From positions 3,657-67,656 of the forward strand of contig JAEOTC010000111.1 in assembly GCA_016840035.1 (NCBI GenBank): a stretch of 64,000 nt of DNA, in the 5' to 3' direction. The stretch comes from Candidatus Hodarchaeota archaeon (GTDB lineage Archaea > Asgardarchaeota > Heimdallarchaeia > Hodarchaeales > Hodarchaeaceae). The translations under genes and the position numbers were made by a program. This document shows, in pieces, positions 28,839 through 43,857 of this stretch. The notes beneath the pieces were generated by a model. It was not told where the DNA came from. It was given only the letters and a program-made list of their open reading frames with translations, and ran no database searches. Every line of letters starts with the position of its first letter. Within the stretch, counting starts at the first letter, position 1.

Positions 28839-31763
28839 CTATGAACAGTTCACGCAACGAGCAACGACTTCTTCATTCTTAATTTTGACCTTCACTCGTC
28901 CACAGGTATCACAAACTTCTGTTCCACACTTCTTACAGACTGATAACAGCTCTGGAGCAAAAGATTTTTTACATCCTTGACATTGTTTGGGAGTATGTTC
29001 AGGACAATAAGTTGCTTCAGTATTAGGATCAAATGCGCTGCATTCCCCGCATAAACTCTGTTCACAAACCTTACATACTTCAGAATGGTCAAGACAAGCA
29101 GTTTTTCCACATTTTTGGCAAAATGTGATGTGTTCACTACAAAAGAGTTTCAAGCAGGTTGTACATACAAAAGTGGGAGGAGAAATTTCAACAGCCAATA
29201 ATGATTGATAGTAATTCTCAGTGCTTATCTGAGGACCGCATCCTTCACACATAAGTTCTGCATTACCATTATAGAGATTAAGATTCAAATGGAACTGATT
29301 AACAGTATCTTGATCACTTTGGTTTAGTTTGATTGAAAGAGGTATTGATAAACGTGGAACCCAATAAACTGATTTTTCAATAATAGAAACATCTGCTTTT
29401 CCAGGTCGATAAAGATCAGGTGGTACTCCTTGGCTTTTAAGAACCTCAATAGATTTATGAAAAGCCTCATAATTTTCCTGTTTTTCTTTAAATAATGCTT
29501 GCCGCTTTTTCTCATTGTTGGCGATTTGTTTTCTAAGTTCTTTCACTCGATCTTCATGTCTCATCTGTTTATTAGAGGTAGAATCAATGGATCTTTCGAT
29601 GGCTCTTATTGAACGTCCCTCTGCGGCACGTGCCTTCCTTTCAGCCTCTAGATTTTCAAGTCTCGAAAGAGTATCATCAAGCTTCTGATTCTCAGTTTGG
29701 AGTTTCTCCTCTAATCCACTAATTTGTGTGGATAATTTGGATAACTCTTTTCCAACTTTCTTCCCAGCAAGTTTTGAAATCTCATTTCTCTCGAATTCTC
29801 TTATGCGTTCCTGATAGATAGATTCCGCTTCAGGAAACGGATTTTGTGTATAGTACCAAATTAAGTTCTCAGGTAGTTTAGTAATTACCTCTTTATCGAA
29901 ATCAAGGAATTTATATCCAGTGAGGGGCTGAATTGCTAAATCCTTGGCAGGGAGGGAAGAAGCATGAATCCCTTCAATAGTAGTAGAATTCCAATCGATC
30001 TTTCGCAGATCAAATGTTCGTGACATTTCCTCCTTTATCTGAACTGGAAATTGTAGTTGTCCTTCTTTAATAGTTCTTTTGATGTCTATCAAAGTTTTTG
30101 TAAAGTACAGTGGAGAGTAGAAAATATTATAGGCTCCAAACTCGAGATTAATTCCATCCTGTTCTGGATTACCTCTGAGGCTCAACCTCTCCATGATTAC
30201 TGGGATGTACTCTTCATTTTCGGGCTTGATCTTAGGTTCAAGAAATCTTTCGGTAATTTTCCCCATAGCAGGCTTCTTAGCTTTGACTGAAACTGCAGAA
30301 ATAACTGTATCCTTTTTCATTTCTGGAGTTGGTTTCTTTTCTTCAGGTTGTACCTTTTTGGGTTTTGGGGGTTTAAGTGTAAGAGCAGATATTTCCGAAT
30401 TCGTTAATGGTCCTTTATGTAGACTTAGTAACCACCGTGTTTGAAGCATATTAACTCCATATCTGGGATTATAAGCAATGAAATTCCCAGGTTTCAGTGC
30501 TCTAATTTTACTCATTAATGATCTAAATTCCTCTTCAGTTCCACCACCACCTTCAAAGACAGGTTTTAGTGCACCTTGGACTTTAGCGATGTCTTGATTG
30601 GTTGCCAATCTACCCAAAACCCAAGTAGCGATATTTGATAACCCACGATAATCTAAATCTCCTGGATTTTGAGTTGCTAGTACACATCCCAACCCTGCTG
30701 CTCTTGCCTGTTTTAACAAGATTAAAAGCGCTGTTTTTGACGGAGGACTCAGAGATCCAGCAGGCATGAATCCATATAACTCATCAAAGTACATGATGGC
30801 GCGTAAACGACTTGTACCTCCTTTTGACCAGGCCCACCTTTGAACTTCCCCTAAAATTTCAGCAACAAAAGTATTTTTTTCGTCTGAATCAGTAATCTTA
30901 CGTAAGTCAAAAACAATTATAGGTGTTTTCTTCTCTTTGGTTGCTAAACCAATAAGCTTATCAAAATCAAGCTCTACACCTGGAACTGCACGGACCATCA
31001 AAGCATTAATATTACGAGCTAATTCTTGACGTTTAGTAGTTGAGATGAATTTATCAACAGAAAGAGAACCCACTTTTTTAAATGGGGGGTCTTGTATTCG
31101 TTCTATTAGAAGGTCTAAACCAACGGTATTTTGCTTTTCGTTCTCCCAAACATGTCGAATAATGTTATTTAGATAGATAACACGATTGTCTGTCGATGCT
31201 GATGTTCCAATTCCAACTCTTGATAGTAACAATTGTATTTTGAGATCTAACGCGCTTAAAACCGCATCAGGCGATTCTTCCATCATCTTTGAATAATTCT
31301 TGGGCTTTTCAAAGTGTGGAGTAAGAGAAATCTGGACTCCAGAGGAATTTTTTGGAGTAATTAATACTGTAGCCACTTTATCTGAATACTCTGCCTCTGC
31401 GGAAAGGTAATCATCACCAAAAGATTCTTCAAGTTTTTCCTCATATAAATTCACCCAATCTTCAGCTATTTCCTCTGGATCTCCACCGCCACGATCGTCT
31501 GCCTCCACTTTTGCATGAATAAGTAATTTATCTTTCGAAAAATCCCCAAAACCAATCCCTAAAGCACCAATATCTCCTTTAGGATCAATAGCAATTACAG
31601 GGATATTTGATCTGACTGCTTCTTCAACTATTGACTTGCACACAACTGTTTTCCCTGAACCACTTGCCCCTAATACCGCAGCATGTGTTAAAAAGGTTGT
31701 AGAAGGTAATTCAAATCTCTCTCCCTCGCTTAGTTTTCCAAGAAAAAACTTCGGATCAGCCAT
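28839..31763 (-). CDS. HerA/DUF853-like P-loop ATPase fused to Lys/Pro linker, coiled coil and Cys-rich multi-zinc C-terminus
   Basis: Walker A GASGSGKT followed by PVIAIDPKGDIG, Walker B AIMYFDELYGFMP, and VLATQNPGDLDY. Coiled-coil-like segment LSKLSTQISGLEEKLQTENQKLDDTLSRLENLEAERKA. The last 139 aa carry 21 Cys and 3 His in CxxC/CxxH pairs. Confidence 0.75.
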   Translation of the reverse strand: MADPKFFLGKLSEGERFELPSTTFLTHAAVLGASGSGKTVVCKSIVEEAVRSNIPVIAIDPKGDIGALGIGFGDFSKDKLLIHAKVEADDRGGGDPEEIAEDWVNLYEEKLEESFGDDYLSAEAEYSDKVATVLITPKNSSGVQISLTPHFEKPKNYSKMMEESPDAVLSALDLKIQLLLSRVGIGTSASTDNRVIYLNNIIRHVWENEKQNTVGLDLLIERIQDPPFKKVGSLSVDKFISTTKRQELARNINALMVRAVPGVELDFDKLIGLATKEKKTPIIVFDLRKITDSDEKNTFVAEILGEVQRWAWSKGGTSRLRAIMYFDELYGFMPAGSLSPPSKTALLILLKQARAAGLGCVLATQNPGDLDYRGLSNIATWVLGRLATNQDIAKVQGALKPVFEGGGGTEEEFRSLMSKIRALKPGNFIAYNPRYGVNMLQTRWLLSLHKGPLTNSEISALTLKPPKPKKVQPEEKKPTPEMKKDTVISAVSVKAKKPAMGKITERFLEPKIKPENEEYIPVIMERLSLRGNPEQDGINLEFGAYNIFYSPLYFTKTLIDIKRTIKEGQLQFPVQIKEEMSRTFDLRKIDWNSTTIEGIHASSLPAKDLAIQPLTGYKFLDFDKEVITKLPENLIWYYTQNPFPEAESIYQERIREFERNEISKLAGKKVGKELSKLSTQISGLEEKLQTENQKLDDTLSRLENLEAERKARAAEGRSIRAIERSIDSTSNKQMRHEDRVKELRKQIANNEKKRQALFKEKQENYEAFHKSIEVLKSQGVPPDLYRPGKADVSIIEKSVYWVPRLSIPLSIKLNQSDQDTVNQFHLNLNLYNGNAELMCEGCGPQISTENYYQSLLAVEISPPTFVCTTCLKLFCSEHITFCQKCGKTACLDHSEVCKVCEQSLCGECSAFDPNTEATYCPEHTPKQCQGCKKSFAPELLSVCKKCGTEVCDTCGRVKVKIKNEEVVARCVNCS

Positions 31764-31894
31764 TTTCCTTTACCACATTATTGTATTTGATGAAAATGAA
31801 TTAAATTAATAAATGAATCCTTTAGTTCACGGAATATATTAAACTAGTCAATTGCAAAAATACCAAGCATTTTCTATTATTTTGGAGGTTGACC

Positions 31895-32920
31895 ATGTCT
31901 TCAGCAAAATTTCCTATAATTACCTTAGAAGGATCTCCAGAAGAGATAGGTATACAACACGGAGAAATTTTGAAAAATAAAATTCATTCTACAGTTACCT
32001 GGTATAAAAAGGTCATATCAAAAGAAGAAAAACAGATATTAACGCTAGTGGAAATTTTTAAATTAACAATCGAGAATTTTGATCCCACTTACGCCTCTGA
32101 AATCGAAGCCATTGCGACTGGGGCTGATATAAATTCTAACTGGATCTATATGCTAAATTCACGTTCTGAAATCATGAATATCTTTCAAAATGAGTGTACT
32201 GCGGCATTTTTTAAGTCGTCAGCAATTTTAGGTCAGAACTGGGATTGGGCCGAAGATCTCGAAAATCTTGCCGTGATCATGAAAATTAAGAAACAAGATG
32301 ACAATAAACCTGACATACTCATGATGACGGAACCAGGCATTATTGGAAAGATTGGATTTAATTCAAATGGATTGGGAGTATGTCTAAATTTTCTTAATTC
32401 CGGAAAATTACCACGAGGTGTTCCAATACATATCCTTCTAAGAAAAGTATTGGAATTATCGAGTATTAACCAAGTTGGAAGATCTATTGGACCTTTTATG
32501 AGTGGAAAATCTGCAAATATTTTGATTGGAGAAAAGTCTGGAGAATATATCGATATCGAATTTGCTAATGATGAGCATTATTATCCGAACACAACTTCAG
32601 ATGCTTTTATTCACACAAATCATTATTTGATGAACAATGCTTTAAACAGTGATACAGAGAAATTAGCCAGTTCTTTCAGCAGGTACAATAAAGCCTTGAA
32701 CATTATTAAGAATAATCCCTCTAAAACAGTAGAGGATATGAAAGGAATATTATTGGATCGCACGAACAAAGCTCTCCCTATCTGTCGCCCCTATGTAGAT
32801 AATCCTGATATTGGGACAGTTGGTACAATATGTACTATAATCATGGACCTGAAAAACGGAAAAATGCACATCACAAAAGGTAGTCCCCTGAATACTCCTT
32901 TTTCTTCTGTTGAACTATAA
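31895..32920 (+). CDS. peptidase C45 / acyl-CoA:6-APA acyltransferase-like Ntn-hydrolase
   Basis: LEGSPEEIGIQHGE N-terminus, candidate autoprocessing nucleophile in QNECTAAFF, and GQNWDW. GGAGGT lies 5 nt upstream of the ATG at 31895 (the track lists TTG at 31889). Confidence 0.7.
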   Translation: MSSAKFPIITLEGSPEEIGIQHGEILKNKIHSTVTWYKKVISKEEKQILTLVEIFKLTIENFDPTYASEIEAIATGADINSNWIYMLNSRSEIMNIFQNECTAAFFKSSAILGQNWDWAEDLENLAVIMKIKKQDDNKPDILMMTEPGIIGKIGFNSNGLGVCLNFLNSGKLPRGVPIHILLRKVLELSSINQVGRSIGPFMSGKSANILIGEKSGEYIDIEFANDEHYYPNTTSDAFIHTNHYLMNNALNSDTEKLASSFSRYNKALNIIKNNPSKTVEDMKGILLDRTNKALPICRPYVDNPDIGTVGTICTIIMDLKNGKMHITKGSPLNTPFSSVEL

Positions 32921-32999
32921 AGCGAGAATTATCTCTCCTTTACCACATTGGTTTCTATTTAAAGGACCCTTTTTATCCATTTTTTAAGGTGTTACTCAT

Positions 33000-34040
33000 A
33001 TGACTGGATATTCTATCAAGGAATTTGATCCCCCAAACGTTGAAGATGATCAATTTTGGGATAATTTCTATTCTTTCTATACAAAATTTGTCAAGGACAT
33101 ACATCCTAACGATCCTCTTACTCCTAAACCACGAATAGTAAAATCATTGAAAGATCCTCATCCAGACTATCACATCAACCATTGGTTGGTATATACTTCC
33201 GATAAGGAAATCGTTGGTTGGGCAGATAATTATATTTCAAAGGAAACTCATCCTGCATACGATACAAACAAACATGTGGCAGGTTGTGATACAGTTATAT
33301 TAAAAGAACATCGTCATAACGGATTAGGGACACAACTCTTCCGATACCACTTGAAAATCGTAAAAAAGTATAATCGTACAATAATCCAAGCTGGAACCTC
33401 TGAGGAATCAGGGCATAATTTCTTAAGGAAATTTGGTGGGAAAGAAGCAATTCAAGGTTCAGAGAATCGTTTGCAGATGAATGAGGTAGATTGGTCACTT
33501 ATGCAGCAGTGGATAGATGATGGCCCAGAAAGAGCAAAAGAGGTGAATCTTGAACGATTCGTTGATGTTTCCGATTCTGATATTGAGGAATATTGTGTAA
33601 TCTATACTGAAACCATGAATCAACAACCCTTCGGAGAGCTTGAAGGGAGAGTAAAGGAAACACCCGATTCACGAAGACAGAGTGAGGAGAGACATCGTAA
33701 AAGAGGAGGAAAATGGACAACTCTGATTTCAAGAGAGAAAAATGGAAGGATCAGTGGTTTAACAGAGGTTTTTTATTACCCAGATAAACCTTCAATGCTT
33801 TATCAAAATTTAACTGGAGTAAAAGAAGAATATCGAGGTAAGGGACTGGGAAAATGGCTTAAAGCAACAATGCTCAAATGGATAAGTGAAGAATACCCAG
33901 ATGTTAAAACAATTGTCACTGGTAATGCCACTACTAATGCACCCATGCTTTCAATTAACCAGAGAATGGGATTTAAAGAATATAAGTCAGGATCGGAATA
34001 TAAATTTCAGGTTGAAGAGCTTGAAAAGCTACTCGATTAA
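33000..34040 (+). CDS. tandem GNAT-domain acetyltransferase
   Basis: Two acetyl-CoA loops: EHRHNGLGTQLFRY and EYRGKGLGKWLKATML, plus NAPMLSINQRMGF. Confidence 0.75.
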   Translation: MTGYSIKEFDPPNVEDDQFWDNFYSFYTKFVKDIHPNDPLTPKPRIVKSLKDPHPDYHINHWLVYTSDKEIVGWADNYISKETHPAYDTNKHVAGCDTVILKEHRHNGLGTQLFRYHLKIVKKYNRTIIQAGTSEESGHNFLRKFGGKEAIQGSENRLQMNEVDWSLMQQWIDDGPERAKEVNLERFVDVSDSDIEEYCVIYTETMNQQPFGELEGRVKETPDSRRQSEERHRKRGGKWTTLISREKNGRISGLTEVFYYPDKPSMLYQNLTGVKEEYRGKGLGKWLKATMLKWISEEYPDVKTIVTGNATTNAPMLSINQRMGFKEYKSGSEYKFQVEELEKLLD

Positions 34041-34292: not shown

Positions 34293-34877
34293 GTGGTAAA
34301 TGTTGGCATTTTAGGAGATATGAACTGCGGGAAAACATCAGTATTTGTACGATTTATGAATTCATTAGCTGCCTCAAATGAGAAAATTATTGCTGGTTCT
34401 CCTGGAGGACCAGAAATGTATACTACTCAGACTGTAGATTTTATTAGATTCACTCATAAGGGATTTATTCATGTCTTATACGGCACTGGAGGACACACAA
34501 CACCTATCACTGATTATTACCGTGTTTACGTTTTAAGAAATGCCAACCGATTCCTTTGCATGTTTGATTTGTCGATTGAATTAGAACCTCAACTAGCTTT
34601 CTACAAGAACCTTGAGATTCCAACGAAGCAAGTAACAATCTTCCTGAACAAATATGATCTCGCACAAGAGAACTATGCTGAATATAAAGAGAAAGTAGAA
34701 GATTTTTTCATTAACGACCAGAAAAAACTGATCAAAGAAATTCTCCCTACAGTCGCGATAAAAGTCGAGGAAGGGAAATTCAAAAAAGAAACAGAAAATT
34801 GTCTGAAAGGAATCCTTGATTTGTGTGAATTTGATAAAGACGCCTCTGCATTCGATGTTTGGAATGGTCAAGGATAA
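34293..34877 (+). CDS. small P-loop GTPase with atypical G3 motif
   Basis: G1 GDMNCGKTS, G2 Thr in TTQTVDF, G3 LYGTGGH (Tyr where the DxxG Asp is expected), G4 LNKYDL (NKxD). GTG start with AAGGAG 10 nt upstream. Confidence 0.7.
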   Translation: MVNVGILGDMNCGKTSVFVRFMNSLAASNEKIIAGSPGGPEMYTTQTVDFIRFTHKGFIHVLYGTGGHTTPITDYYRVYVLRNANRFLCMFDLSIELEPQLAFYKNLEIPTKQVTIFLNKYDLAQENYAEYKEKVEDFFINDQKKLIKEILPTVAIKVEEGKFKKETENCLKGILDLCEFDKDASAFDVWNGQG

Positions 34878-34900
34878 GAATTAAAAAAAAGGTAGGAATA

Positions 34901-35806
34901 ATGGAATCTTCTGATCCTTTTGCTCAACTGGTTGAAACATTATCAGTAATAGAGCATCAGAATCGAATTTTATGCCTGTTGGCGGTGTATTTGGGTCAAA
35001 AAGCAGATCAGAATACAATTCAAGGTATTACTGATATTCTTTCATCTCTTTTAGGGAAAGATGAGCAATTTACTACAGCGAAAACCCGAGGTCTGATCAC
35101 TTCATTAGTGAATGGAGGAATCTTAGAACGGGAACGTGAGAAAGTAATAAGCTCTACGAAAGTTTCCTTCCATTCTATTAGTCCTCTTGGGTATATAGTC
35201 CTGCTATATGTCCTACAAACCTATATTATTAAGATTGACCCTGCTTCTATTAATTGGGATACCACTCGTTTTCAAGACTACGCCGATTCAGAAGAAAAAA
35301 TGCTCTACTATACCATAGATGCATTACTTATTCAAGAGCCTAAAATCAACCGAATTCTTACTTCCCTACGAAGTGGAAAGGATCCCAAGAAAATAAGGCT
35401 ATCGAAACCACTAAATATTCCTTTAGAGAAACTATTTTCAGGAAAAACAGGGAATACAGTATTTAAAATTATGGAGGAATTGATCTGGGATTACTTGCAT
35501 TCTAACACTGGATTAAGTAAATCCACACTCGATCAAACATCAGATTCCTCAATAAGTAGTCCTTTGAAAAAACTTTCCACTTTTTTGATGGTAGAAGAAA
35601 ATTGGGGCAAGGAAAGACGTTTTAGACTGTCAATTCACGGGATATTTCTTTTACCTGTATTTGCTTTGCTTATAAAGCATTTTTCTGTGGATAAATCAAT
35701 ATTCCCATCATTAAAATTATCTCGCTTAGAAAAGGATGAGAATTATTGGATTGCCCTTACAAAGTTAGGAAATTCATTCTTTAAAACAGTATACAGAATA
35801 TCTTAA
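34901..35806 (+). CDS. hypothetical protein, probable tandem winged-helix domains
   Basis: The ATG at 34901 lies 23 nt after the GTPase stop; the track's 34859 start would overlap that gene. Two helix-turn-helix-plus-beta-wing-like segments: ILCLLAVYLGQKADQNTIQGITDIL...GGILEREREKVISSTKVSFHSISPLG and FKIMEELIWDYLHSNTGLSKSTL...MVEENWGKERRFRLSIHG. The fold call is unverified. Confidence 0.4.
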   Translation: MESSDPFAQLVETLSVIEHQNRILCLLAVYLGQKADQNTIQGITDILSSLLGKDEQFTTAKTRGLITSLVNGGILEREREKVISSTKVSFHSISPLGYIVLLYVLQTYIIKIDPASINWDTTRFQDYADSEEKMLYYTIDALLIQEPKINRILTSLRSGKDPKKIRLSKPLNIPLEKLFSGKTGNTVFKIMEELIWDYLHSNTGLSKSTLDQTSDSSISSPLKKLSTFLMVEENWGKERRFRLSIHGIFLLPVFALLIKHFSVDKSIFPSLKLSRLEKDENYWIALTKLGNSFFKTVYRIS

Positions 35807-35886
35807 CGCTATTTTTCTCTACCATTGCGTAAAGTTAAAAACGCAATACTTCTTAGAGTTCCGCCTAGCTTATTGAGGTTATATCA

Positions 35887-37284
35887 GTGCTGAAGATTTC
35901 TGATGAAGCAGGAAATCTACATTATCTCCCTCTTGTAGATATTCATACTCACATAGGAAGGGTGAAAATAGCAACCACAAAGGGTAGTTCTCAACGAATA
36001 AACCAACCTCAAGACATTACCAACCTATACCAGAAATTACAATATGAAATTACCTCACGGATTAGTCAGAACCAAGATAAGTATCCTATTAACATTCCTG
36101 ATGCTCAGGAATGTGTAGAACCCCTTCTTCCTATTGTAAACACAATATTAACCCATCAATCAGCAAAATCAAGAGCTTTCTTGGTAGATGTGATAGTTAC
36201 ATTCCCATTTAATGATATATTTCACTTAAAAACCTCCCCCAAATTTGTAAAAAGCAATCGATATGTACGTTATCAAGTGAATACTTTCGATAACACCTTT
36301 AGATTTCTTCCCTTCTGCCGAGTAGATCCTACCGATTCTGATGCTGTAAATGAGATTCAGAGTTCTATCACTCAGGGAATGTATGGCTTGAAACTCCATC
36401 CACTGTCTCAAGGATGGATTGACAGAATTAAAACTGCAGAGACTATGAATGTATTGAAAACTGCTGGAAATCTGAACATTCCAGTAATTTTCGATGTACC
36501 CAACAAGGGTGTGGCTCTTGATATTACAACCATCACACAAGAGGCGCGTCAAGAATCAGAAAATCCTGTCAAAGTAATACTAGGACATACAGGATTCGAT
36601 TATTCTTCCTCAGAGATATTTGATTGTCTGTCTCAGGAGGGGATGTATGCAGAGACTTCTGGTATGAGAGGAAAGGATGTTGAGATTTTTTTTAATAATG
36701 TCATATCGGTCCCTGATTGGGAAAATAAACTTTTATTTGGCACGGATCACAATTATTTTAGTGTTCTACAGGCAACAGATGTCATAACATTTCTAATTTC
36801 AAACAAGTTTCAAATAATGTTGTTAGAGAATGATATTGAAGCAAAACCACTAGAAATTGCATTTAAAATATTAGGAGGCAATGCTTTAGAGATTATCCCA
36901 ACTGCATGGGATCCTATAACAGAAAAAACCCCTCAATTAAAATTTAAAGTTTTGAAAGACGTTTTCATACAATTTCTAAAGAAATACATAACTTCGGAGG
37001 GAAACTATCTGCGGGTTGATCAAGGCTTCGATGAATCCAGAAAAGAGGTAGTTCAAATCATCACTTTTGGAACTAGTAATACAAAATTCTCTTTTATTAT
37101 ATTTGAAACATCCAATCTACGAGAAATATTATTACAATCTATTCATCCAGCTATTCGAAAAGTAAATTATAGTGAGCAAGCAATATTTCCCGTGCTTTCA
37201 ACTTTAAAATCATTAAAGAGAGCAAAAAAACTTTCCCTAGAGAAATTGCAGGCAACAGTGATTAAAATTTTGTCACAAGAGTGA
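35887..37284 (+). CDS. amidohydrolase-2-like TIM-barrel metal hydrolase with about 130-aa C-terminal extension
   Basis: VDIHTHIGR (HxH), YGLKLHPLSQGW, ILGHTGFDY, LFGTDHNY (metal Asp). GTG start with GAGGT 8 nt upstream. Confidence 0.6.
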   Translation: MLKISDEAGNLHYLPLVDIHTHIGRVKIATTKGSSQRINQPQDITNLYQKLQYEITSRISQNQDKYPINIPDAQECVEPLLPIVNTILTHQSAKSRAFLVDVIVTFPFNDIFHLKTSPKFVKSNRYVRYQVNTFDNTFRFLPFCRVDPTDSDAVNEIQSSITQGMYGLKLHPLSQGWIDRIKTAETMNVLKTAGNLNIPVIFDVPNKGVALDITTITQEARQESENPVKVILGHTGFDYSSSEIFDCLSQEGMYAETSGMRGKDVEIFFNNVISVPDWENKLLFGTDHNYFSVLQATDVITFLISNKFQIMLLENDIEAKPLEIAFKILGGNALEIIPTAWDPITEKTPQLKFKVLKDVFIQFLKKYITSEGNYLRVDQGFDESRKEVVQIITFGTSNTKFSFIIFETSNLREILLQSIHPAIRKVNYSEQAIFPVLSTLKSLKRAKKLSLEKLQATVIKILSQE

Positions 37285-40200
37285 ACATAATGGAATTAAA
37301 AGACTACATATTAGAGACACAATTATATTTTTCCCATGGGATAGAAGTTGAAAATCATTTAGTGAACGAAAGCACAGGGGAAGTTCTAGTCGGAAATGAA
37401 CTGATTGAGACTTGGGAACAAATGTTTGCTGGTGCAGTGAAATACTTAGAAAAGTTGAAAAAAGCAAAACACACACCAAAAGCCATAGCTAAGAAGATCG
37501 TGAAAATTGAGGTAACGGAGGAATTAAAAAGAGAGAAAAGACTCAATTTTATCTTCGTTCACTATCGATTAGGAAAAAAGACAATTCGAGTCAATGTCTT
37601 TGGTCCTGATCCAAATATATCCCAGATCACTTGGTTATTAGAACTTGTTACCCCTCCATGTGAGTATTTGGAAGAAATTGCCTTCTGGATTGATTCTCTT
37701 TACGCTGCCGCTGCTCATGGCCTTTCAAAAGTAAAAAATAAATGTACTCTGTTACCTTTAGGATTAAATCCCATGGAAAAACGAGTACGAAGTGGTTTGA
37801 CTTGTGGCGAACATCATCACATAGGTATTCCCTCCTTTTTCCGTGCACCCGTTTATAACATGCTGAGAAACTATATTCCCCACCTAATTGCGTTAAGTTC
37901 AACTTCTCCGTTTCTCGACCAGAAACCAAGTAGTAAAATAATTTTCAAGGAGAAAGATGGGAAAAAACAAGTGATTAGCAGAGGAATTCATTCGTATCGA
38001 TTAGCAAACAATACTGGTCAAATGGGACCAAACATCCCTCAGTACTTGCCTATTATTGATGATATGACATCTCGAGAAGACTTTGCCAACTCGATACGCA
38101 AAGTTCCCCCTGAGGATCGGATGATAGATCTTTTTCCATATACGGACTATTCGACAATAGAGTTAAGATTTTTCGATGCCCAGCCTTATAAAGAAAACCG
38201 CTTAGCTATGGTTTTACTTATCCAAGCATTAGCTCAGAAAACAAAAAAGTTAATTAAAGATAAATTACCTGTTCCAACTGTATCTTCAAAGAGTTTATAT
38301 GAGAATCGCCGAAAATCAATTCAATTTGGTCTTTTAGCTCAATTTACAAGAGATGAAACCCTAACAGGCGAGTTTGCATGGTATTACAATTATGATATTG
38401 AGAATGGAGTAAAAGCCTCAAAACTATTACATTCCGTTCTAGCCATGCTTATATATATTGAAGATGAAATACTGGATCTTGGTGAGAAATATGTCGACCA
38501 GGTACTATTACCAGTCTTGGGTTCAAAGAAATTTGCCCCTCCATTCACGGTATGTGAATATCTTCTTTCTCTTTACACAGAAAAAAAAGAAAATGCAGCT
38601 GAACTACTCAAAGAATTATACTATGAGGAAAAGCTTTCATACACTCCCGAAGTAGCAGGTGATTTCTCATCATTCCTTGTTGAAAATCCTCCTGACTCTT
38701 TCACAGAGGTCGACACTCAGAAAGCGAACTTAAGTCAGCTTTTGAAGAAAGATATTTCCACAAGAGATGTATTTGCAAGCAAGCCCAAACCAAAACCCAA
38801 AAAACGAAAAAAACCGAAACCAGTAGTTCCCAAAGAAGAACCAGTCGAAGTAACGAAGAAAAAGAAACCAGAGGTAGTACGAGCCAAAAAAGAACCTAAG
38901 AAAAAGGTTCCTAGTAAAAAACCAAAGGTTGTAGAGCCTACTAAACCTAAAAAGCCTGTTAAAAAAGTTACACCTAAGAAGGAAGTAAAAAAGAAACCTA
39001 TAGATCCGAAACTTACTCCTATCAAAGAAGAACCGCAGGTTTTCTCCGCATTTGATGAAAATGAGGATCTTGAGATCTATTCTCCGATGATCGAAATTGA
39101 ACCTAAGTATCAGAAAATTAATTCTAAAATTGCGAATATAATGAGAACACGCCGTCAAGAAATTGAGACAAAGCGTGTAGTCTTCTTTCGTGAACATCTG
39201 AAGGAGGAAGAGTCGTCTTTCAAACCTTTCCCAAAAAAAAGAGCAGCGATTTTTCCCGCTCTATTTTCTGGCCCTGAATTATTTGGATATATTGAACTTA
39301 CATTTGGTGACATTAAGAAAGTTATGTATCAATTTCGTAATAATCCAATTACTCTGAAATTTTATGATAACCAAACAGACAAAGAAATCTCTTCCATTAG
39401 AACTTTTATTGATATTTCTAGAATTGAAAAACGTCAAATGGTAAGAATTCCATGTTCCGTTAACCTAGGAGAATTATATGGGAAGTTACAAATCAGAGTA
39501 GAAGCCGTCACTTCCACAAATCACAGATTACTACCTGAAAACTTTACATTTAAAACAGAACGCAAAGATGACATTAGTATTTCTCCTAAAGAATTCTATA
39601 TAACAAGTAACTTTGGTTCTGTAGAGTGCATTTACAAAGCGACCAATGATTCCAAGAAAGAAGAACGAGGGGAATTAACACTCATATTAGCAACACAAGC
39701 AGCAGCAACACCAATAGTCCTTTATGAGGAGAAATTTTCTCTTCAGCCTCGTGCTTCATATGAGTTGGCCAGGAGTATTGATTTATCCATTGATTACCAG
39801 CATAGTTCTTTTTATATCATTGCCCGTGTAACTACAGGGATGCTTAAGAAAAATCGATCATTTAAGAGTATACGCGTACCAGTATTACGTGAAATTGTGG
39901 TTGATTGGTCTTATGAAACAAAGGCTGGTTCTAAAAATGACCTTTGGCAAGGGGTGGAATCCAAAACACACTACTCTGTCGATTTTGTTTTTCATTTTCT
40001 TCGATCTTTACCTCCTGTAACCATAACTATTTATATAAACACGTTTCCTCAAGGAGAAACAAAGAAATTAACGAGCTTACGGTTGAAGCGGTACATAGAT
40101 AAAGGGGATGAGTTTCGTGCACCAACAGTCAAATTCAAAACCCCTAAAAAATGCGGTTACTTAATATTCGATGCACAAATTCGGACAGAAAAAGGTATTC

Positions 40201-40289
40201 TACCAATGCATTTAATCTCCGAACCAATTGGGGTATATGCATTGACTACTAAAGCCACATTCGAAGAAAGACGAAATTTAGATCTGTAA
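37281..40289 (+). CDS. GCS2/YbdK-type carboxylate-amine ligase fused to Lys/Pro-rich linker and about 430-aa beta-rich C-terminal region
   Basis: Motif-by-motif match to my recollection of E. coli YbdK: HGIEVENHLVN (LGIELEMQVVN), LLELVTPPCEY (MLELATDVC), CGEHHHIGIP (GQHVHVG), LRNYIPHLIALSSTSPF (FVPHFIALSAASPY), STIELRFFDAQP (GTVEVRVMDTP). The GTG at 37281 overlaps the upstream stop by 4 nt; the ATG at 37290 is an alternative. Confidence 0.8.
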   Translation: MNIMELKDYILETQLYFSHGIEVENHLVNESTGEVLVGNELIETWEQMFAGAVKYLEKLKKAKHTPKAIAKKIVKIEVTEELKREKRLNFIFVHYRLGKKTIRVNVFGPDPNISQITWLLELVTPPCEYLEEIAFWIDSLYAAAAHGLSKVKNKCTLLPLGLNPMEKRVRSGLTCGEHHHIGIPSFFRAPVYNMLRNYIPHLIALSSTSPFLDQKPSSKIIFKEKDGKKQVISRGIHSYRLANNTGQMGPNIPQYLPIIDDMTSREDFANSIRKVPPEDRMIDLFPYTDYSTIELRFFDAQPYKENRLAMVLLIQALAQKTKKLIKDKLPVPTVSSKSLYENRRKSIQFGLLAQFTRDETLTGEFAWYYNYDIENGVKASKLLHSVLAMLIYIEDEILDLGEKYVDQVLLPVLGSKKFAPPFTVCEYLLSLYTEKKENAAELLKELYYEEKLSYTPEVAGDFSSFLVENPPDSFTEVDTQKANLSQLLKKDISTRDVFASKPKPKPKKRKKPKPVVPKEEPVEVTKKKKPEVVRAKKEPKKKVPSKKPKVVEPTKPKKPVKKVTPKKEVKKKPIDPKLTPIKEEPQVFSAFDENEDLEIYSPMIEIEPKYQKINSKIANIMRTRRQEIETKRVVFFREHLKEEESSFKPFPKKRAAIFPALFSGPELFGYIELTFGDIKKVMYQFRNNPITLKFYDNQTDKEISSIRTFIDISRIEKRQMVRIPCSVNLGELYGKLQIRVEAVTSTNHRLLPENFTFKTERKDDISISPKEFYITSNFGSVECIYKATNDSKKEERGELTLILATQAAATPIVLYEEKFSLQPRASYELARSIDLSIDYQHSSFYIIARVTTGMLKKNRSFKSIRVPVLREIVVDWSYETKAGSKNDLWQGVESKTHYSVDFVFHFLRSLPPVTITIYINTFPQGETKKLTSLRLKRYIDKGDEFRAPTVKFKTPKKCGYLIFDAQIRTEKGILPMHLISEPIGVYALTTKATFEERRNLDL
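38781..39015 (+). repeat. low-complexity Lys/Pro-coding tract (aaa/aag/cca/cct rich) inside the ligase fusion gene
   Basis: Encodes KPKPKPKKRKKPKPVVPKEEPVEVTKKKKPEVVRAKKEPKKKVPSKKPKVVEPTKPKKPVKKVTPKKEVKKKPIDPK. It also generates long Phe-rich antisense pseudo-ORFs. Confidence 0.7.
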
Positions 40290-40394
40290 TGAAATACCTA
40301 TGAATTTGGATTGACCTTAAAGGATGTAATTTTTAAAGGACACATCAACCTAGACTGAAACAACTCAAGATAACTATAGCAAGGAGACTTTCTC

Positions 40395-41684
40395 ATGACC
40401 AAAATTCCATTGAATGTTGTAAATGTTGGCAATATTGAGGGAAGAGCTTATCTTCATCCTCAAGACATAGAAAAATTGGAAATTAATGAATTCGATTATG
40501 TAAAAATGGTAACTGAATGGGAGGATTGGGGAGCAGTTCAGATTCTTTTATCAGATGAGGTAGAGCAGGGTACAATTGCAGTAGATGGTAGCGTACTTTC
40601 ATCAGCGAATATATCGGATGGTGATGCGGTTGAAGTCGACGTAGTTACTGCTACAGCAGGTATCAAATCGATTAAGCTGGGAATCGAACCTCTTGCTGGT
40701 CAAGAAGTGGAAGAAGCGATTTTATGGATTGCTACTGAATTTGAACAACTTTCTACCCTTTTAAAAAATCGTCCAGTGTTCAATAATCTACAAATCGGAT
40801 GGGAAGATTGTCCAATAGGTAATTTAACAGTCAGATTTCTCGGTGCAGACCCTCCGATACCTGAGGAGAATATTGGAATTGTGGATCCCACTGGAAGAGA
40901 AGTGGAGATTAATATAATTCCATTTACTGAAATGAGTTTTAACGCCGTATTGGTTCTTGATGTCTCAGGAAGCATGTCCAAGAAAGATATGAAAGTACAG
41001 AACATTAGTGGTGCATTAGAAGGTTTAAAAAAGGGATTAGATGAGTCAAATGAACTGAATCAGTTTATAGAAAAATTCCAAGATGGAAAGAAAGTTTCTA
41101 GAGTTGATGCAGCTGCGATGGCAATAATGTTATTCATGTCATTGAAGATTGCTAAAGGATGGGGAGAACAAATCCAATTGTTAACTTTTTCCGGTGAAGT
41201 GGAAAAATTTGCTCTCGGAGAGGCAAACGTAATCTCATGTGTTGGAGAAACGAAGAAAGCAGGAATCGAAAGCATCATAGACCATGTTGTTCAGAAAACT
41301 GCTGAAAGTACTGGTTTAACATTCCTAAGTGGTGCTATAGATCAAGCATATAAGAGCATCGCTAGTTTTGATGATAATCCCACTATCCAGAAGAAGAATC
41401 CAACCATGATTATTGTTCTTACTGATGGTAATCCAAATAAAGGAAATGGGCTAGGAGTCAATCCCATTCCAGTTGTCAAACAGCATGTTGAACAATTACC
41501 TGAAGTCGTGCTGTATGCAATTGGATTAGGAGAAGCTGATCGGTTAATGCTTCGCAAAATCGGTGAAATGGGTCGTGGGGGAAGCCTGATGGCGGACGAC
41601 TTGGAAACACTGATCGATTTCTATGATTCACTTGCTCAGAATTTCCAGATGGTCGTAAAAATGAAGAAGGAGCCCGAAGACTAA
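40395..41684 (+). CDS. CDC48-N-like (double-psi barrel-like) domain fused to a von Willebrand factor A domain
   Basis: N-terminus RAYLHPQDIEKLEINEFDYVKMV...GTIAVDGSVLSSANISDGDAVEV resembles CDC48/VAT N domains. vWA MIDAS AVLVLDVSGSMS (DxSxS), plus LLTFSG and IIVLTDGNPN. AAGGAG lies upstream. Confidence 0.7.
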   Translation: MTKIPLNVVNVGNIEGRAYLHPQDIEKLEINEFDYVKMVTEWEDWGAVQILLSDEVEQGTIAVDGSVLSSANISDGDAVEVDVVTATAGIKSIKLGIEPLAGQEVEEAILWIATEFEQLSTLLKNRPVFNNLQIGWEDCPIGNLTVRFLGADPPIPEENIGIVDPTGREVEINIIPFTEMSFNAVLVLDVSGSMSKKDMKVQNISGALEGLKKGLDESNELNQFIEKFQDGKKVSRVDAAAMAIMLFMSLKIAKGWGEQIQLLTFSGEVEKFALGEANVISCVGETKKAGIESIIDHVVQKTAESTGLTFLSGAIDQAYKSIASFDDNPTIQKKNPTMIIVLTDGNPNKGNGLGVNPIPVVKQHVEQLPEVVLYAIGLGEADRLMLRKIGEMGRGGSLMADDLETLIDFYDSLAQNFQMVVKMKKEPED

Positions 41685-41886
41685 TTTTATCTTAATCCTC
41701 CCCTTTATTTTTCATTTTAATTTTCTCCCCTACGACGAAAGTTCAATTTAAACCTTTATTCATCGCAAACACTCATGATTAAGGCAAAAATCGGGACTAA
41801 AAATCTCTAAACCGTCTTTAATCTAATTAAATTCCGTAGGAAAAGGACTAGATTTTTATACTTCAATCAAGATTGCAATGTCCCCC

Positions 41887-41930: not shown

Positions 41931-43454
41931 ATGCCAGAATACAAGGTCGTAACCTCTGATTTAGATCCAAAAGACGCTGTAATTGTGTCTACCGAAAATA
42001 ATCAGCATATAGTAACACAAGCAAAATTCTCGTTATCATTTAAAGGAACTGAAGAAAAGGTTGGACAGGTTTTCAAATTAAAATGCTTTTTAGAAGAAGA
42101 TGAAATAGGACTCTCGCAGGTCATGATGAATCGACTTGGAGTAGCAGAAGGGGATCTAGTCCGTTTGCAATCTATTGGAAGAACAATCTCCAGAAGCTTT
42201 TCTCTAATTAAGCAAAGAATAGCTCAACCAGGAAGAATGTTTACTAAAAACGAAATAGATCAGATTATTAGTGACATCACTCTGGATAATATGACTCCAC
42301 TTGAAGAATCCGTTTTTCTCACTTCCCAAATGCTCCAAGAGTGGAGTATCGGCGAGGTTGAACATCTAACCAATGCCATAGCTTATTCGGGACAAGTAAT
42401 AAATTGGGGGGAAACTGTGATCTTTGACAAGCATTCTTTAGGTGGTGTTCCCGGTAACAAAGTTACACTTCTTGTTGTTCCCATCATTGCAGCTGCTGGT
42501 TTAACTATTCCCAAAACCTCATCTCGTGCCATTACAAGCCCTTCAGGTACAGCTGATACTATGGAAGCACTTGGGTGTACGATTGAATTCACAATTGATG
42601 AAATGGTGGACATGGCACATAAGGTTGGAGGCCTTATTGCATGGACTGGAGGGTTAAATCTTGTTCCCGCAGATGAAAAGATAATCCGTGATGTTCAGTA
42701 TCCATTAGGGATCGATCCAGAACCAATGATGATGGCTTCTGTGATTTCTAAGAAAGTCGCCATGGGAGTGAAATTTTTAGTACTTGATATACCAACAGGT
42801 TATGGTACGAAAGTAGCATCTCTTGATGATGGAAAGCGAATTGCCCATAAATTTGCTGAATTAGGGCGATTACTTGGTATTAGAATTGAAAGTGGCATTA
42901 CTTACGGTAGCTCACCTGTTGGTAACGCTATTGGCCCTGCATTAGAAGCACAAGAGGCTCTTACTAGTCTTAAAAATCCTTTAGAGGCCCCTCATTCTCT
43001 AGTAGGCAAGAGTACATCTCTCGCAGGGATCCTCTTAGAGATGGCTGGAAAAGCAATTACAGGTACCGGGCAAGAGATGGCGTATGAGATACTAAATTCT
43101 GGGAAGGCATATCAGAAATTTCAGGAGATTATAGAAGCTCAAGATGCCGATCCAAATCTTAAACCAGAAGATATCGAGATTGGAAAAGCGAGTTATGACT
43201 ATCTAGCCCCGCAAAGTGGGTATGTAGTTGAAATCAACAATAAAGTGATTGTTCGAGCTGCTCGTGCAGCTGGTGCTCCAATGGATAAACGTGCAGGAGT
43301 TTTTTTCCATAAGAAGAAAGATTCTGTGAAACGAGGAGAACCTCTATTTACGCTGTACTCAGCAAATGAGAAAAAACTTACCGCTGCTCAAGCAGAGTTA
43401 ACTAAAGGAGATTTACCAGTAACAATTGAGGGTATGCTATTAGCACGAGAATAA
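41931..43454 (+). CDS. deoA: AMP phosphorylase (archaeal thymidine-phosphorylase-family enzyme)
   Basis: About 500-aa archaeal form with an N-terminal extension. DKHSLGGVPGNKVTL, KTSSRAITSPSGTADTMEALG, PLGIDPEPMMMASVISKK. Confidence 0.85.
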   Translation: MPEYKVVTSDLDPKDAVIVSTENNQHIVTQAKFSLSFKGTEEKVGQVFKLKCFLEEDEIGLSQVMMNRLGVAEGDLVRLQSIGRTISRSFSLIKQRIAQPGRMFTKNEIDQIISDITLDNMTPLEESVFLTSQMLQEWSIGEVEHLTNAIAYSGQVINWGETVIFDKHSLGGVPGNKVTLLVVPIIAAAGLTIPKTSSRAITSPSGTADTMEALGCTIEFTIDEMVDMAHKVGGLIAWTGGLNLVPADEKIIRDVQYPLGIDPEPMMMASVISKKVAMGVKFLVLDIPTGYGTKVASLDDGKRIAHKFAELGRLLGIRIESGITYGSSPVGNAIGPALEAQEALTSLKNPLEAPHSLVGKSTSLAGILLEMAGKAITGTGQEMAYEILNSGKAYQKFQEIIEAQDADPNLKPEDIEIGKASYDYLAPQSGYVVEINNKVIVRAARAAGAPMDKRAGVFFHKKKDSVKRGEPLFTLYSANEKKLTAAQAELTKGDLPVTIEGMLLARE

Positions 43455-43458
43455 ACTA

Positions 43459-43857
43459 TTGATTGGAATGAAACCATCCACAAAAGTACCCCTGGATATA
43501 TTATCTCAATTTGTTGCTCATTGTAATTCTATACCCGAGAAAACTGTTATTATTGTTGAAGGCAAACGAGATATTGAAGCATTAGAGTTAATTGGTATCA
43601 AGTTAACCAATGGTACTATTCTCGCGAAAAAAGGTCAATCTGTTTCCAATCTTGTAAATTTAATTCAACGTACTCCTGTAATCATCCTTCTCCCAGATTT
43701 TGATAAGGAGGGAAAGCATCTACGGGGCAAAATTCTCAAAGAACTTCAGAAGTATAAAGGACATGGACTTATTGACCCCATTCCGAGGCAGCTCTTGTTT
43801 AAATTTTGTCGAGCCACCCGAATTAATGAAATTGAGGAGCTTAAACAGTTTTCATAA
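43459..43857 (+). CDS. small Toprim-domain protein (UPF0292-like)
   Basis: VIIVEGKRDIEAL (Toprim Glu) and ILLPDFDKEGKHLR (DxD). 132 aa. TTG at 43459 or ATG at 43468. Confidence 0.7.
   Translation: MIGMKPSTKVPLDILSQFVAHCNSIPEKTVIIVEGKRDIEALELIGIKLTNGTILAKKGQSVSNLVNLIQRTPVIILLPDFDKEGKHLRGKILKELQKYKGHGLIDPIPRQLLFKFCRATRINEIEELKQFS

Follow-up and report, generated by a model that had tools for sequence, protein, structure and literature searches.

The question raised by the locus studied here is whether five co-oriented genes of an Asgard archaeon act together and, if so, on what. The locus lies in a stretch of 64,000 nt (hereafter the window) from Candidatus Hodarchaeota archaeon (assembly GCA_016840035.1, contig JAEOTC010000111.1, positions 3,657-67,656 of the forward strand), and comprises five open reading frames (ORFs), g1 to g5, all on the plus strand between window positions 34293 and 41684. 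Among known archaea, the Asgard group and especially its Hodarchaeales stand nearest to eukaryotes, and gene sets that are specific to Asgard archaea and conserved throughout them are candidates for a cell biology older than eukaryotes themselves. Of the five genes, only g3, g4 and g5 form the conserved unit, and the window carries the Hodarchaeales version of this Asgard-restricted triad, with catalytic and metal-binding residues conserved in all three proteins. As to function, we lean tentatively, and with considerable doubt, toward a system in which a writer (g4), an eraser (g3) and an adaptor (g5) would make and undo an amide bond, g5 being either the target or the intermediary.

Linkage and distribution of g3, g4 and g5

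A scan of one genome per GTDB species returned 217 loci with a relative of the g4 ligase; 80 of these, together with nine further loci (89 in all, designated by L numbers), were compared by tblastn and ORF clustering. The genes g3, g4 and g5 are linked in Hodarchaeales, Heimdallarchaeia, Jord/Freya, Sigyn, Asgardarchaeia and Thor, at mutual distances of about 10 kb at most (9.5-11 kb in the Thor-type), and their order and strand vary by clade. The hydrolase gene g3 is linked to the ligase in 35 of the 80 loci, and also in L087. The 16 Hodarchaeales-type loci show a contiguous g3-g4-g5 arrangement, with g3 present in 14 of them, g5 in 12, and both in all ten of the loci that have both flanks. 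In the Heimdall-type (11 loci), g3 and g4 are always adjacent and g5 lies about 8.7 kb upstream on the opposite strand in nine, the contigs of the other two being too short. Jord/Freya, L037/L039 and the Asgardarchaeia locus L087 have the order g4(+) g5(-) g3(-), Sigyn has g5-x-g4, and L089 has vWA-g4. The Thor-type, represented by 38 loci, places g5(-) and g3(-) approximately 9.5-11 kb downstream of g4, and of the 21 loci with a flank long enough to cover this distance, 15 have g5. Finally, L050, L061 and L073 carry a short ligase of about 550 aa, devoid of the C-terminal beta array described below, with g3 as the next gene. Each pair among g3, g4 and g5 is thus adjacent in some arrangement.

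The neighborhood search suggested in a preliminary description of this DNA shows that the ligase, amidohydrolase and vWA genes are conserved together from one Asgard class to another; of the five-gene unit proposed there, the g3-g4-g5 part is retained across Asgard archaea, whereas g1 and g2 are restricted to Hodarchaeales loci. The arrangement of g1 to g5 is beyond chance because it is conserved in other genomes, and not because the gaps between the genes are short.

In a collection of 5.8 billion proteins the homologs of g3, g4 and g5 bear Asgard names, the exceptions being a few metagenome-assembled genomes (MAGs) assigned to other phyla. When a profile of the first 178 positions of g5 was searched exhaustively against 1.84 billion representatives, only 45 proteins were returned, every named one of which is Asgard, and the ten distant matches that were tested (10/10) have a vWA domain directly after this module. 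The labels given in the databases are 'glutamate-cysteine ligase family protein', 'VWA domain-containing protein' and 'amidohydrolase family protein', nothing more, and full-text literature searches yielded no description of the ligase family, of the g5 family or of their linkage. The domains are known; their combination and its restriction to Asgard archaea appear to be undescribed.

Predicted proteins of the locus

The g4 protein matches the Pfam family GCS2 (PF04107) with 28.4 bits against a cut-off of 21 (E 1.4e-6, partial coverage). Its best score with the NCBIfam YbdK models (TIGR02050, PRK13515-13518) is 59.8 bits against a cut-off of 176.4, below every curated model for YbdK or glutamate-cysteine ligase (GCL). 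Its homologs are mostly Asgard proteins of 900-1400 aa; instead of falling among ordinary stand-alone YbdK proteins, an outcome that the preliminary description had envisaged, the family is, as judged from sequence, a distinct clade and no ordinary YbdK or GCL. The AlphaFold (AF2) model of g4, built from 64 homologs, has a mean predicted local distance difference test (pLDDT) score of 80.8 and shows four parts, a catalytic domain, a disordered linker, a long helix and an all-beta array (Table 1). Foldseek matched the catalytic domain to YbdK (1tt4_A / 1r8g_A, E 1e-13, target template modeling (TM) score 0.72-0.74). This domain carries the metal, ATP and substrate motifs of GCS2/YbdK (GxExE, HxH, ALSxxSP and TxExR); residues E22, E24, H178, H180, S209, R240, E294 and R296 are unchanged in all 64 homologs, and P210 is invariant in a 29-sequence alignment and at least 90% conserved among the 64 sequences. 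The GCS2 match above cut-off, the YbdK fold and the invariant residues support the earlier assignment of a GCS2/YbdK-type ligase with intact motifs, and g4 is a predicted ATP-dependent carboxylate-amine ligase.

The Lys/Pro-rich linker of g4 reaches a net charge of +26 within its most basic 80-aa stretch, and similar basic linkers are present in the Hodarchaeales, Heimdall and Jord/Freya homologs, with none in Thor homologs. The C-terminal array, poorly conserved in sequence, gave Foldseek matches to the macroglobulin domains of complement C5 and alpha-2-macroglobulin and to transglutaminase beta domains. Altogether the non-catalytic, interaction-type domains of g4 amount to about 500 aa, an unusual feature in a metabolic enzyme. 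In the Thor chromosome CP070658.1 (L069) the ligase is split into two ORFs of 793 aa and 409 aa, a frameshift or a pseudogene, and no g5 lies within 11 kb.

The window g3 protein matches Pfam Amidohydro_2 (PF04909) weakly (E=0.046, 13.9 bits against a cut-off of 26.4); the same domain is matched in 18 of 19 members of the g3 family, with a best E of 4.3e-14. Residues D18, H20, H22, K169, H171, H234 and D287, corresponding to the HxH, K, H, H and D of the metal site, are invariant, and the amidohydrolase identity proposed earlier for g3 is upheld by both results. One Loki-type genome (L086) lacks g3 within 10 kb and has, in the interval from g5 to the ligase, a gene whose product resembles neutral/alkaline ceramidases (Pfam E 5e-22).

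The g5 protein had been described as combining a CDC48-N-like domain with a vWA domain containing a metal ion-dependent adhesion site (MIDAS), and this holds. The vWA domain scores above its Pfam cut-off (Table 1); CDC48_N remains below its own in the window protein (27.6 bits against 35.1) and is matched in 51 of 51 family members (best 1.9e-9). The N-terminal module retrieved p97 N-D1 with Foldseek (E 2e-11). The MIDAS residues, D189-x-S191-x-S193 (40959-40973), T309 and D344, are invariant in alignments of 20 and of 51 sequences, and the AF2 model is of good quality (pLDDT 87, predicted TM score 0.86). Within Hodarchaeales the identity of g5 is 79-95%, against 55-83% for the ligase; at the sequence level g5 is far more conserved than the enzymes of the module, a fact that we count in favor of the writer/eraser/adaptor system.

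The g5 orthologs of Heimdallarchaeia (P0166-P0195; L017, L018, L021, L023 and L027) have hyper-acidic C-terminal tails of 60-80 aa with a conserved EVELALEEEYGGPGEDIA motif; about two thirds of these tails end in acidic residues plus Tyr (e.g. EEDY, DEY), an ending that recalls alpha-tubulin tails. In the same class the ligase linker is strongly basic. Over 32 pairs the charge of the ligase linker and that of the g5 tail give a Spearman coefficient of -0.50, the points being phylogenetically dependent, and the complementarity of the two charges is a hint only.

A subfamily of g5 paralogs, with 36-38% identity to g5, has in addition a linker and a C-terminal ubiquitin-like (Ubl) domain that ends in ...STAG(G), followed by 0-6 further residues. 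These Ubl-fused paralogs were found in L083 and L085, and also in L081, L082 and L084. In the two genomes of L083 and L085 the paralog adjoins genes for RING-like, JAB, E2 and E1 proteins, one of the two operons also holds a ubiquitin gene, and in both a coiled-coil protein is encoded directly upstream of the paralog. The MAG JAFGBX01 has both forms, a Ubl-fused paralog (L085) and an ordinary g5 beside the ligase (L040). In addition, in the Heimdall loci L017, L022, L024 and L027 the gene for a ubiquitin E2 is found two positions downstream of the ligase, behind that for methionyl-tRNA synthetase (MetRS). The presence of Ubl-fused paralogs in ubiquitin operons ties the g5 family to protein modification and indirectly supports a protein-directed role.

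Table 1. Positions of predicted genes, protein domains and neighboring features in the window and in other loci
Feature	Sequence	Positions	Strand	Remarks
g1	window	34293-34877	+	194 aa ORF
g2	window	34901-35806	+	~300 aa; longest ORF from TTG 34859
g3	window	35887-37284	+	465 aa ORF
g3 core, predicted Amidohydro_2-type TIM-barrel metal hydrolase	window	35887-37284	+	residues ~1-340, plus ~120 aa C-terminal extension
g4	window	37281-40289	+	1002 aa ORF
g4 N-terminal catalytic domain	window	37281-38690	+	residues 1-470; GCS2/YbdK fold; pLDDT mostly >90
g4 Lys/Pro-rich basic disordered linker	window	38772-39131	+	residues 498-617; pLDDT <50
g4 C-terminal all-beta array	window	39228-40250	+	residues ~650-990; Ig/macroglobulin-like sandwich domains; confident AF2 model
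g5	window	40395-41684	+	429 aa ORF
g5 N-terminal module	window	40395-40934	+	residues 1-180; CDC48-N-like double-psi barrel and second small domain
g5 vWA domain	window	40935-41684	+	intact MIDAS, short acidic C-terminal tail; Pfam VWA 35.9 bits, cut-off 23.8
T-rich stretch 3' of the g5 stop	window	41685-41730	+	read from sequence
HerA/FtsK-like P-loop ATPase	window	28839-31763	-	974 aa; long coiled-coil region, Cys-rich zinc-ribbon-like C-terminus
C45/AAT Ntn-hydrolase and tandem-GNAT protein	window	31889-34040	+	between the HerA-like gene and g1
AMP phosphorylase-like gene	window	41931-43454	+	
Conserved ORF	window	43459-43857	+	132 aa
Ubl-fused g5 paralog	L083	10001-11764		
Ubl-fused g5 paralog	L085	2225-3964		
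Ceramidase-like gene	L086	11413-13077		between g5 and ligase
PQQ-like beta-propeller gene	L038	2219-2848		Sigyn locus
PQQ-like beta-propeller gene	L088	8624-9946		MAG labelled Thermoplasmatota

The closest relatives of the window proteins belong to Hodarchaeota/Hodarchaeales MAGs, with 83-95% protein identity, and the GC content of about 36% shows no compositional break across the window. The five plus-strand genes and the junctions between them that had been described were recovered when read from the sequence: g1 and g2 overlap by 19 nt if g2 starts at TTG 34859, or are separated by 23 nt if it starts at ATG 34901, the alignment of orthologs favoring the latter; g2 and g3 are 80 nt apart; g3 and g4 overlap by 4 nt at GTGA, an alternative g4 start being the ATG at 37290; and 105 nt separate g4 from g5. 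Shine-Dalgarno-like elements (AGGAG, GAGGT and AAGGAG) precede g1, g3 and g5. The T-rich stretch after g5 likely represents the end of the transcription unit, a prediction made from its composition, and the AMP phosphorylase gene downstream has an AT-rich upstream region of its own. This gene and the 132-aa ORF behind it follow g5 in several Hodarchaeales loci. A recent duplication linking the N-domain of the AMP phosphorylase and that of g5 was considered and rejected, as the two show no similarity.

The g1 protein gives weak matches to GTPase models (GTP_EFTU 6e-6, small_GTP 8e-7), all of its Pfam and NCBIfam matches being below cut-off. It has the G1 motif (GxxxxGKT, as an invariant GxMNCGKTS) and G4 (NKxD, as an invariant LNKYD); G3, expected as DxxG, is an invariant YGTGGH that lacks the Asp. 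These motifs agree with the earlier suggestion of an atypical small GTPase, and g1 is a very conserved, Hodarchaeales-specific accessory gene: it was seen solely in Hodarchaeales-type loci (8 of 16, plus the window). The g2 protein had been called a tandem winged-helix protein, an assignment that could not be verified, given that the window protein has no Pfam, NCBIfam or PDB match and that faint helix-turn-helix/winged-helix matches occur in one to three of nine orthologs; it is a protein of unknown fold with, possibly, an N-terminal winged helix. Profiles of g1 and g2 run against all ORFs of all loci found nothing outside Hodarchaeales loci.

The HerA-like ATPase gene is found divergently upstream of g1 in eight Hodarchaeales-type loci besides the window, and in Hodarchaeales loci only. 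It matches mad8 of PADLOC (7e-14) and HerA models; the PADLOC defense models matched none of g1 to g5, only this neighbor. The C45/AAT and tandem-GNAT genes are missing from related loci, apart from short fragments in L001, and by sequence comparison they look like a genome-specific insertion or a loss elsewhere. In the Heimdall-type loci L017, L022, L024 and L027 the interval between g5 and g3/g4 contains the gene of a Ras-family GTPase whose tail is long and of low complexity. In Jord/Freya-type loci (L028, L031, L032, L036, L037 and L039) the triad is accompanied, in two arrangements, by family F36, a coiled-coil protein of about 505-530 aa, and by family F45, of about 93-116 aa, which ends in ...SQ in three sequences. 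A PQQ-like beta-propeller protein is encoded beside the ligase in the Sigyn locus L038, and another in L088, where the ligase has 892 aa and neither a vWA nor an amidohydrolase neighbor. When the accessory families confined to particular clades (g1, g2, F4, F6, F36, F45, F27, HerA and others) were compared profile against profile, a single match emerged, the P-loop shared by g1 and HerA.

Possible functions of the triad

If the triad operates as writer, eraser and adaptor, g4 would convert a carboxylate into an acyl-phosphate and then join it to an amine; g3 would hydrolyze the bond made by g4, or process the same substrate; and g5, whose MIDAS ion would hold an acidic group while its barrel binds protein, would be either the modified target or an adaptor that presents the target. 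Such a reversible amide-bond modification would be similar in logic, not in ancestry, to pupylation or tubulin-tail ligation. In Hodarchaeales, g1 and g2, co-oriented and located just upstream, would probably add regulation. A protein-directed role is favored because the ligase has an interaction-type C-terminus, because g5 is very highly conserved, because the g5 family has been recruited into ubiquitin operons, and because genes for intermediate metabolic steps are absent from the neighborhoods. Supporting the feasibility of this role, PafA and Dop demonstrate that the superfamily to which g4 belongs is able to act on proteins (PMC2588565). The ceramidase-like amidase of L086, which may represent a displacement of the g3 hydrolase, was counted on the same side.

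Several observations weigh against this proposal. The linkage in Thor is loose, at about 10 kb and with unrelated genes interposed, and several Loki-type loci show no linkage. Characterized Amidohydro_2 enzymes are mostly decarboxylases, hydratases and lactonases, amide cleavage being rare among them. The ceramidase-like gene was found in none of the other loci, which leaves L086 as a single case. The g5 tails listed share no conserved C-terminal residue, and a search for a Pup-like tag among the small conserved neighbors (F45, F9, F22 and F6) revealed no conserved C-terminus, F45 ending in Q only in three closely related sequences. Finally, in FluG an Amidohydro_2 domain is coupled to a gamma-glutamyl ligase, and the presumed substrate of FluG is a small metabolite (PMC6478659).

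This last case leads to the close rival of the writer/eraser/adaptor system, a FluG-type pathway in which g4 would make a gamma-glutamyl-type or other amide metabolite (a signal or a protected amine), g3 would act on the same molecule and g5 would serve as scaffold or regulator; we regard it as possible, with somewhat more doubt. The recurrence of Amidohydro_2 with a gamma-glutamyl ligase, fused in FluG, for which a gamma-glutamylated intermediate has been proposed (PMC6478659), speaks for it, as do the three loci where the ligase preceding g3 is short, about 550 aa, and has no beta array, and the lack of a tag protein among the small conserved neighbors. The GCS2/YbdK relatives of g4 act on free amino acids, which is also in agreement with a small-molecule substrate. 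However, such a pathway leaves unexplained the near-universal linkage to a highly conserved MIDAS/CDC48-N protein and the large interaction-type C-terminus of the ligase, and no conserved genes for intermediate steps or transport accompany the triad. The GNAT and C45 genes, which the preliminary description had cited in support of a metabolite, do not help, since they are specific to this genome and are not conserved neighbors.

A wider claim joins two ideas, that the triad is a ubiquitin-independent Asgard system for protein modification (g4 modifying g5, for instance on its acidic tail, or g5 delivering targets, with g3 as eraser) and that the g5 family is ancestral to the NTD+SABA half of DEPDC5, which belongs to GATOR1, the eukaryotic regulator of Rag GTPases; both together are, in our judgment, unlikely. 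Quite improbable is a GTPase-regulatory scaffold, where g5 would be the archaeal counterpart of that half of DEPDC5/Iml1, the small GTPases nearby its partners and the enzymes a metabolic input. It is known that the NTD of DEPDC5 resembles the N-domain of Sec18/NSF, and SABA resembles Sec23 (PMC8534245); DEPDC5/Sea1 chains of GATOR1/SEACIT are among the top Foldseek matches over the whole of g5 (E ~3e-11, TM-score 0.34-0.37, root-mean-square deviation 9-11 A, 440-458 columns); GTPase genes occur near the module in Hodarchaeales (g1), Heimdall (Ras-like) and L083 (Arf/Gtr1-like); and a published survey of Asgard archaea for GATOR1 parts reported NPRL2-like proteins and no DEPDC5. Yet the TM-scores are no better than those to proteins that share only the vWA domain, such as ITIH1, Pfam IML1 is matched in none of 51 g5 members, the PDB profile search gave no link, and no Sec23_trunk signature was found in Thor g5 orthologs. 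Furthermore, the exhaustive profile search returned Asgard proteins only, with no eukaryote-sized match, g5 ends after the vWA domain and lacks SHEN, DEP and CTD, no longin-type neighbors suggest an NPRL2/3 partnership, and the nearby GTPases change family from clade to clade and are missing in Thor and Jord. The resemblance of the g5 model to DEPDC5 is a lead, not a finding.

Harder still to credit is a role of g5 as a MIDAS chaperone that, like CoxE, NorD and CbbO, would grip an acidic residue of g3 or g4 and assemble or remodel a metal site: the MIDAS is intact, both partner enzymes are metal-dependent and weak VWA_CoxE matches occur in 23 of 51 members, but no MoxR-type AAA+ partner was found in any neighborhood, and neither the Ubl-fused paralogs in ubiquitin operons nor the retention of both ligase and hydrolase would be accounted for. 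The least probable reading is that the genes are no functional unit and are neighbors through inherited synteny only, as the housekeeping genes between them in Thor and Heimdall (ABC ATPase, PFK, MetRS, band-7) might suggest, for order and strand have been reshuffled several times and yet, at protein identities of 30-45%, the genes g3, g4 and g5 have remained no more than about 10 kb apart, in all three pairwise adjacencies, a pattern not expected from passive synteny.

Relation to known systems

In this module a predicted hub for protein interactions (CDC48-N plus MIDAS-vWA) stands alongside a hydrolase and an amide ligase that would use ATP, and paralogs of the hub reside in ubiquitin operons. 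Pupylation (PafA, Dop and Pup) is similar in having an ATP-dependent ligase of the glutamine synthetase (GS)/GCS superfamily, an enzyme that could undo the bond and, possibly, a protein target (PMC2588565). In contrast, the putative eraser g3 is an unrelated TIM-barrel hydrolase, whereas Dop is a paralog of the ligase; Pup_ligase (PF03136) is absent among the Pfam matches of the window proteins at E<=0.1, and neither proteasome/Mpa genes nor a Pup-like tag were found near the module in the 89 loci. If the triad carries out a reversible protein modification, the eukaryotic stem lineage would have possessed, beside ubiquitin, a second conjugation chemistry, one that like pupylation relies on an acyl-phosphate.

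FluG/NodGS proteins also couple an Amidohydro_2 domain to an ATP-dependent carboxylate-amine ligase (PMC6478659). Their ligase is GSI-like and not GCS2, the FluG domains form a single polypeptide, and FluG has no vWA partner. If the product of the triad is a small molecule, it would be an Asgard-specific metabolite or signal, in parallel to the unsolved FluG/NodGS problem.

The two-domain plan of g5, a CDC48/NSF-N-like barrel followed by a three-layer alpha/beta domain, recalls that of DEPDC5/Iml1 NTD+SABA and of p97/CDC48 N-D1, which are its top Foldseek matches. It differs from both in lacking sequence similarity and in having a true vWA domain with MIDAS in place of AAA or SABA, and from DEPDC5 also in the missing SHEN, DEP and CTD domains. 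In two of the Asgard ubiquitin operons (Ub, E1, E2, RING and JAB), the Ubl-bearing g5 paralog is a conserved neighbor; unlike these operons, the module in the window is devoid of E1, E2 and JAB genes, and the Ubl domain is missing from its g5.

Finally, the YbdK/GCS2 ligases (PF04107; E. coli YbdK, PDB 1r8g/1tt4) have the fold and hallmark motifs of the g4 catalytic domain. This domain is about 100 aa larger than YbdK and scores far below the YbdK/GCL cut-offs; it is followed in the same polypeptide by a basic disordered linker and some 350 aa of beta-sandwich array, and the family to which it belongs is restricted to Asgard archaea and linked to vWA and Amidohydro_2 genes.

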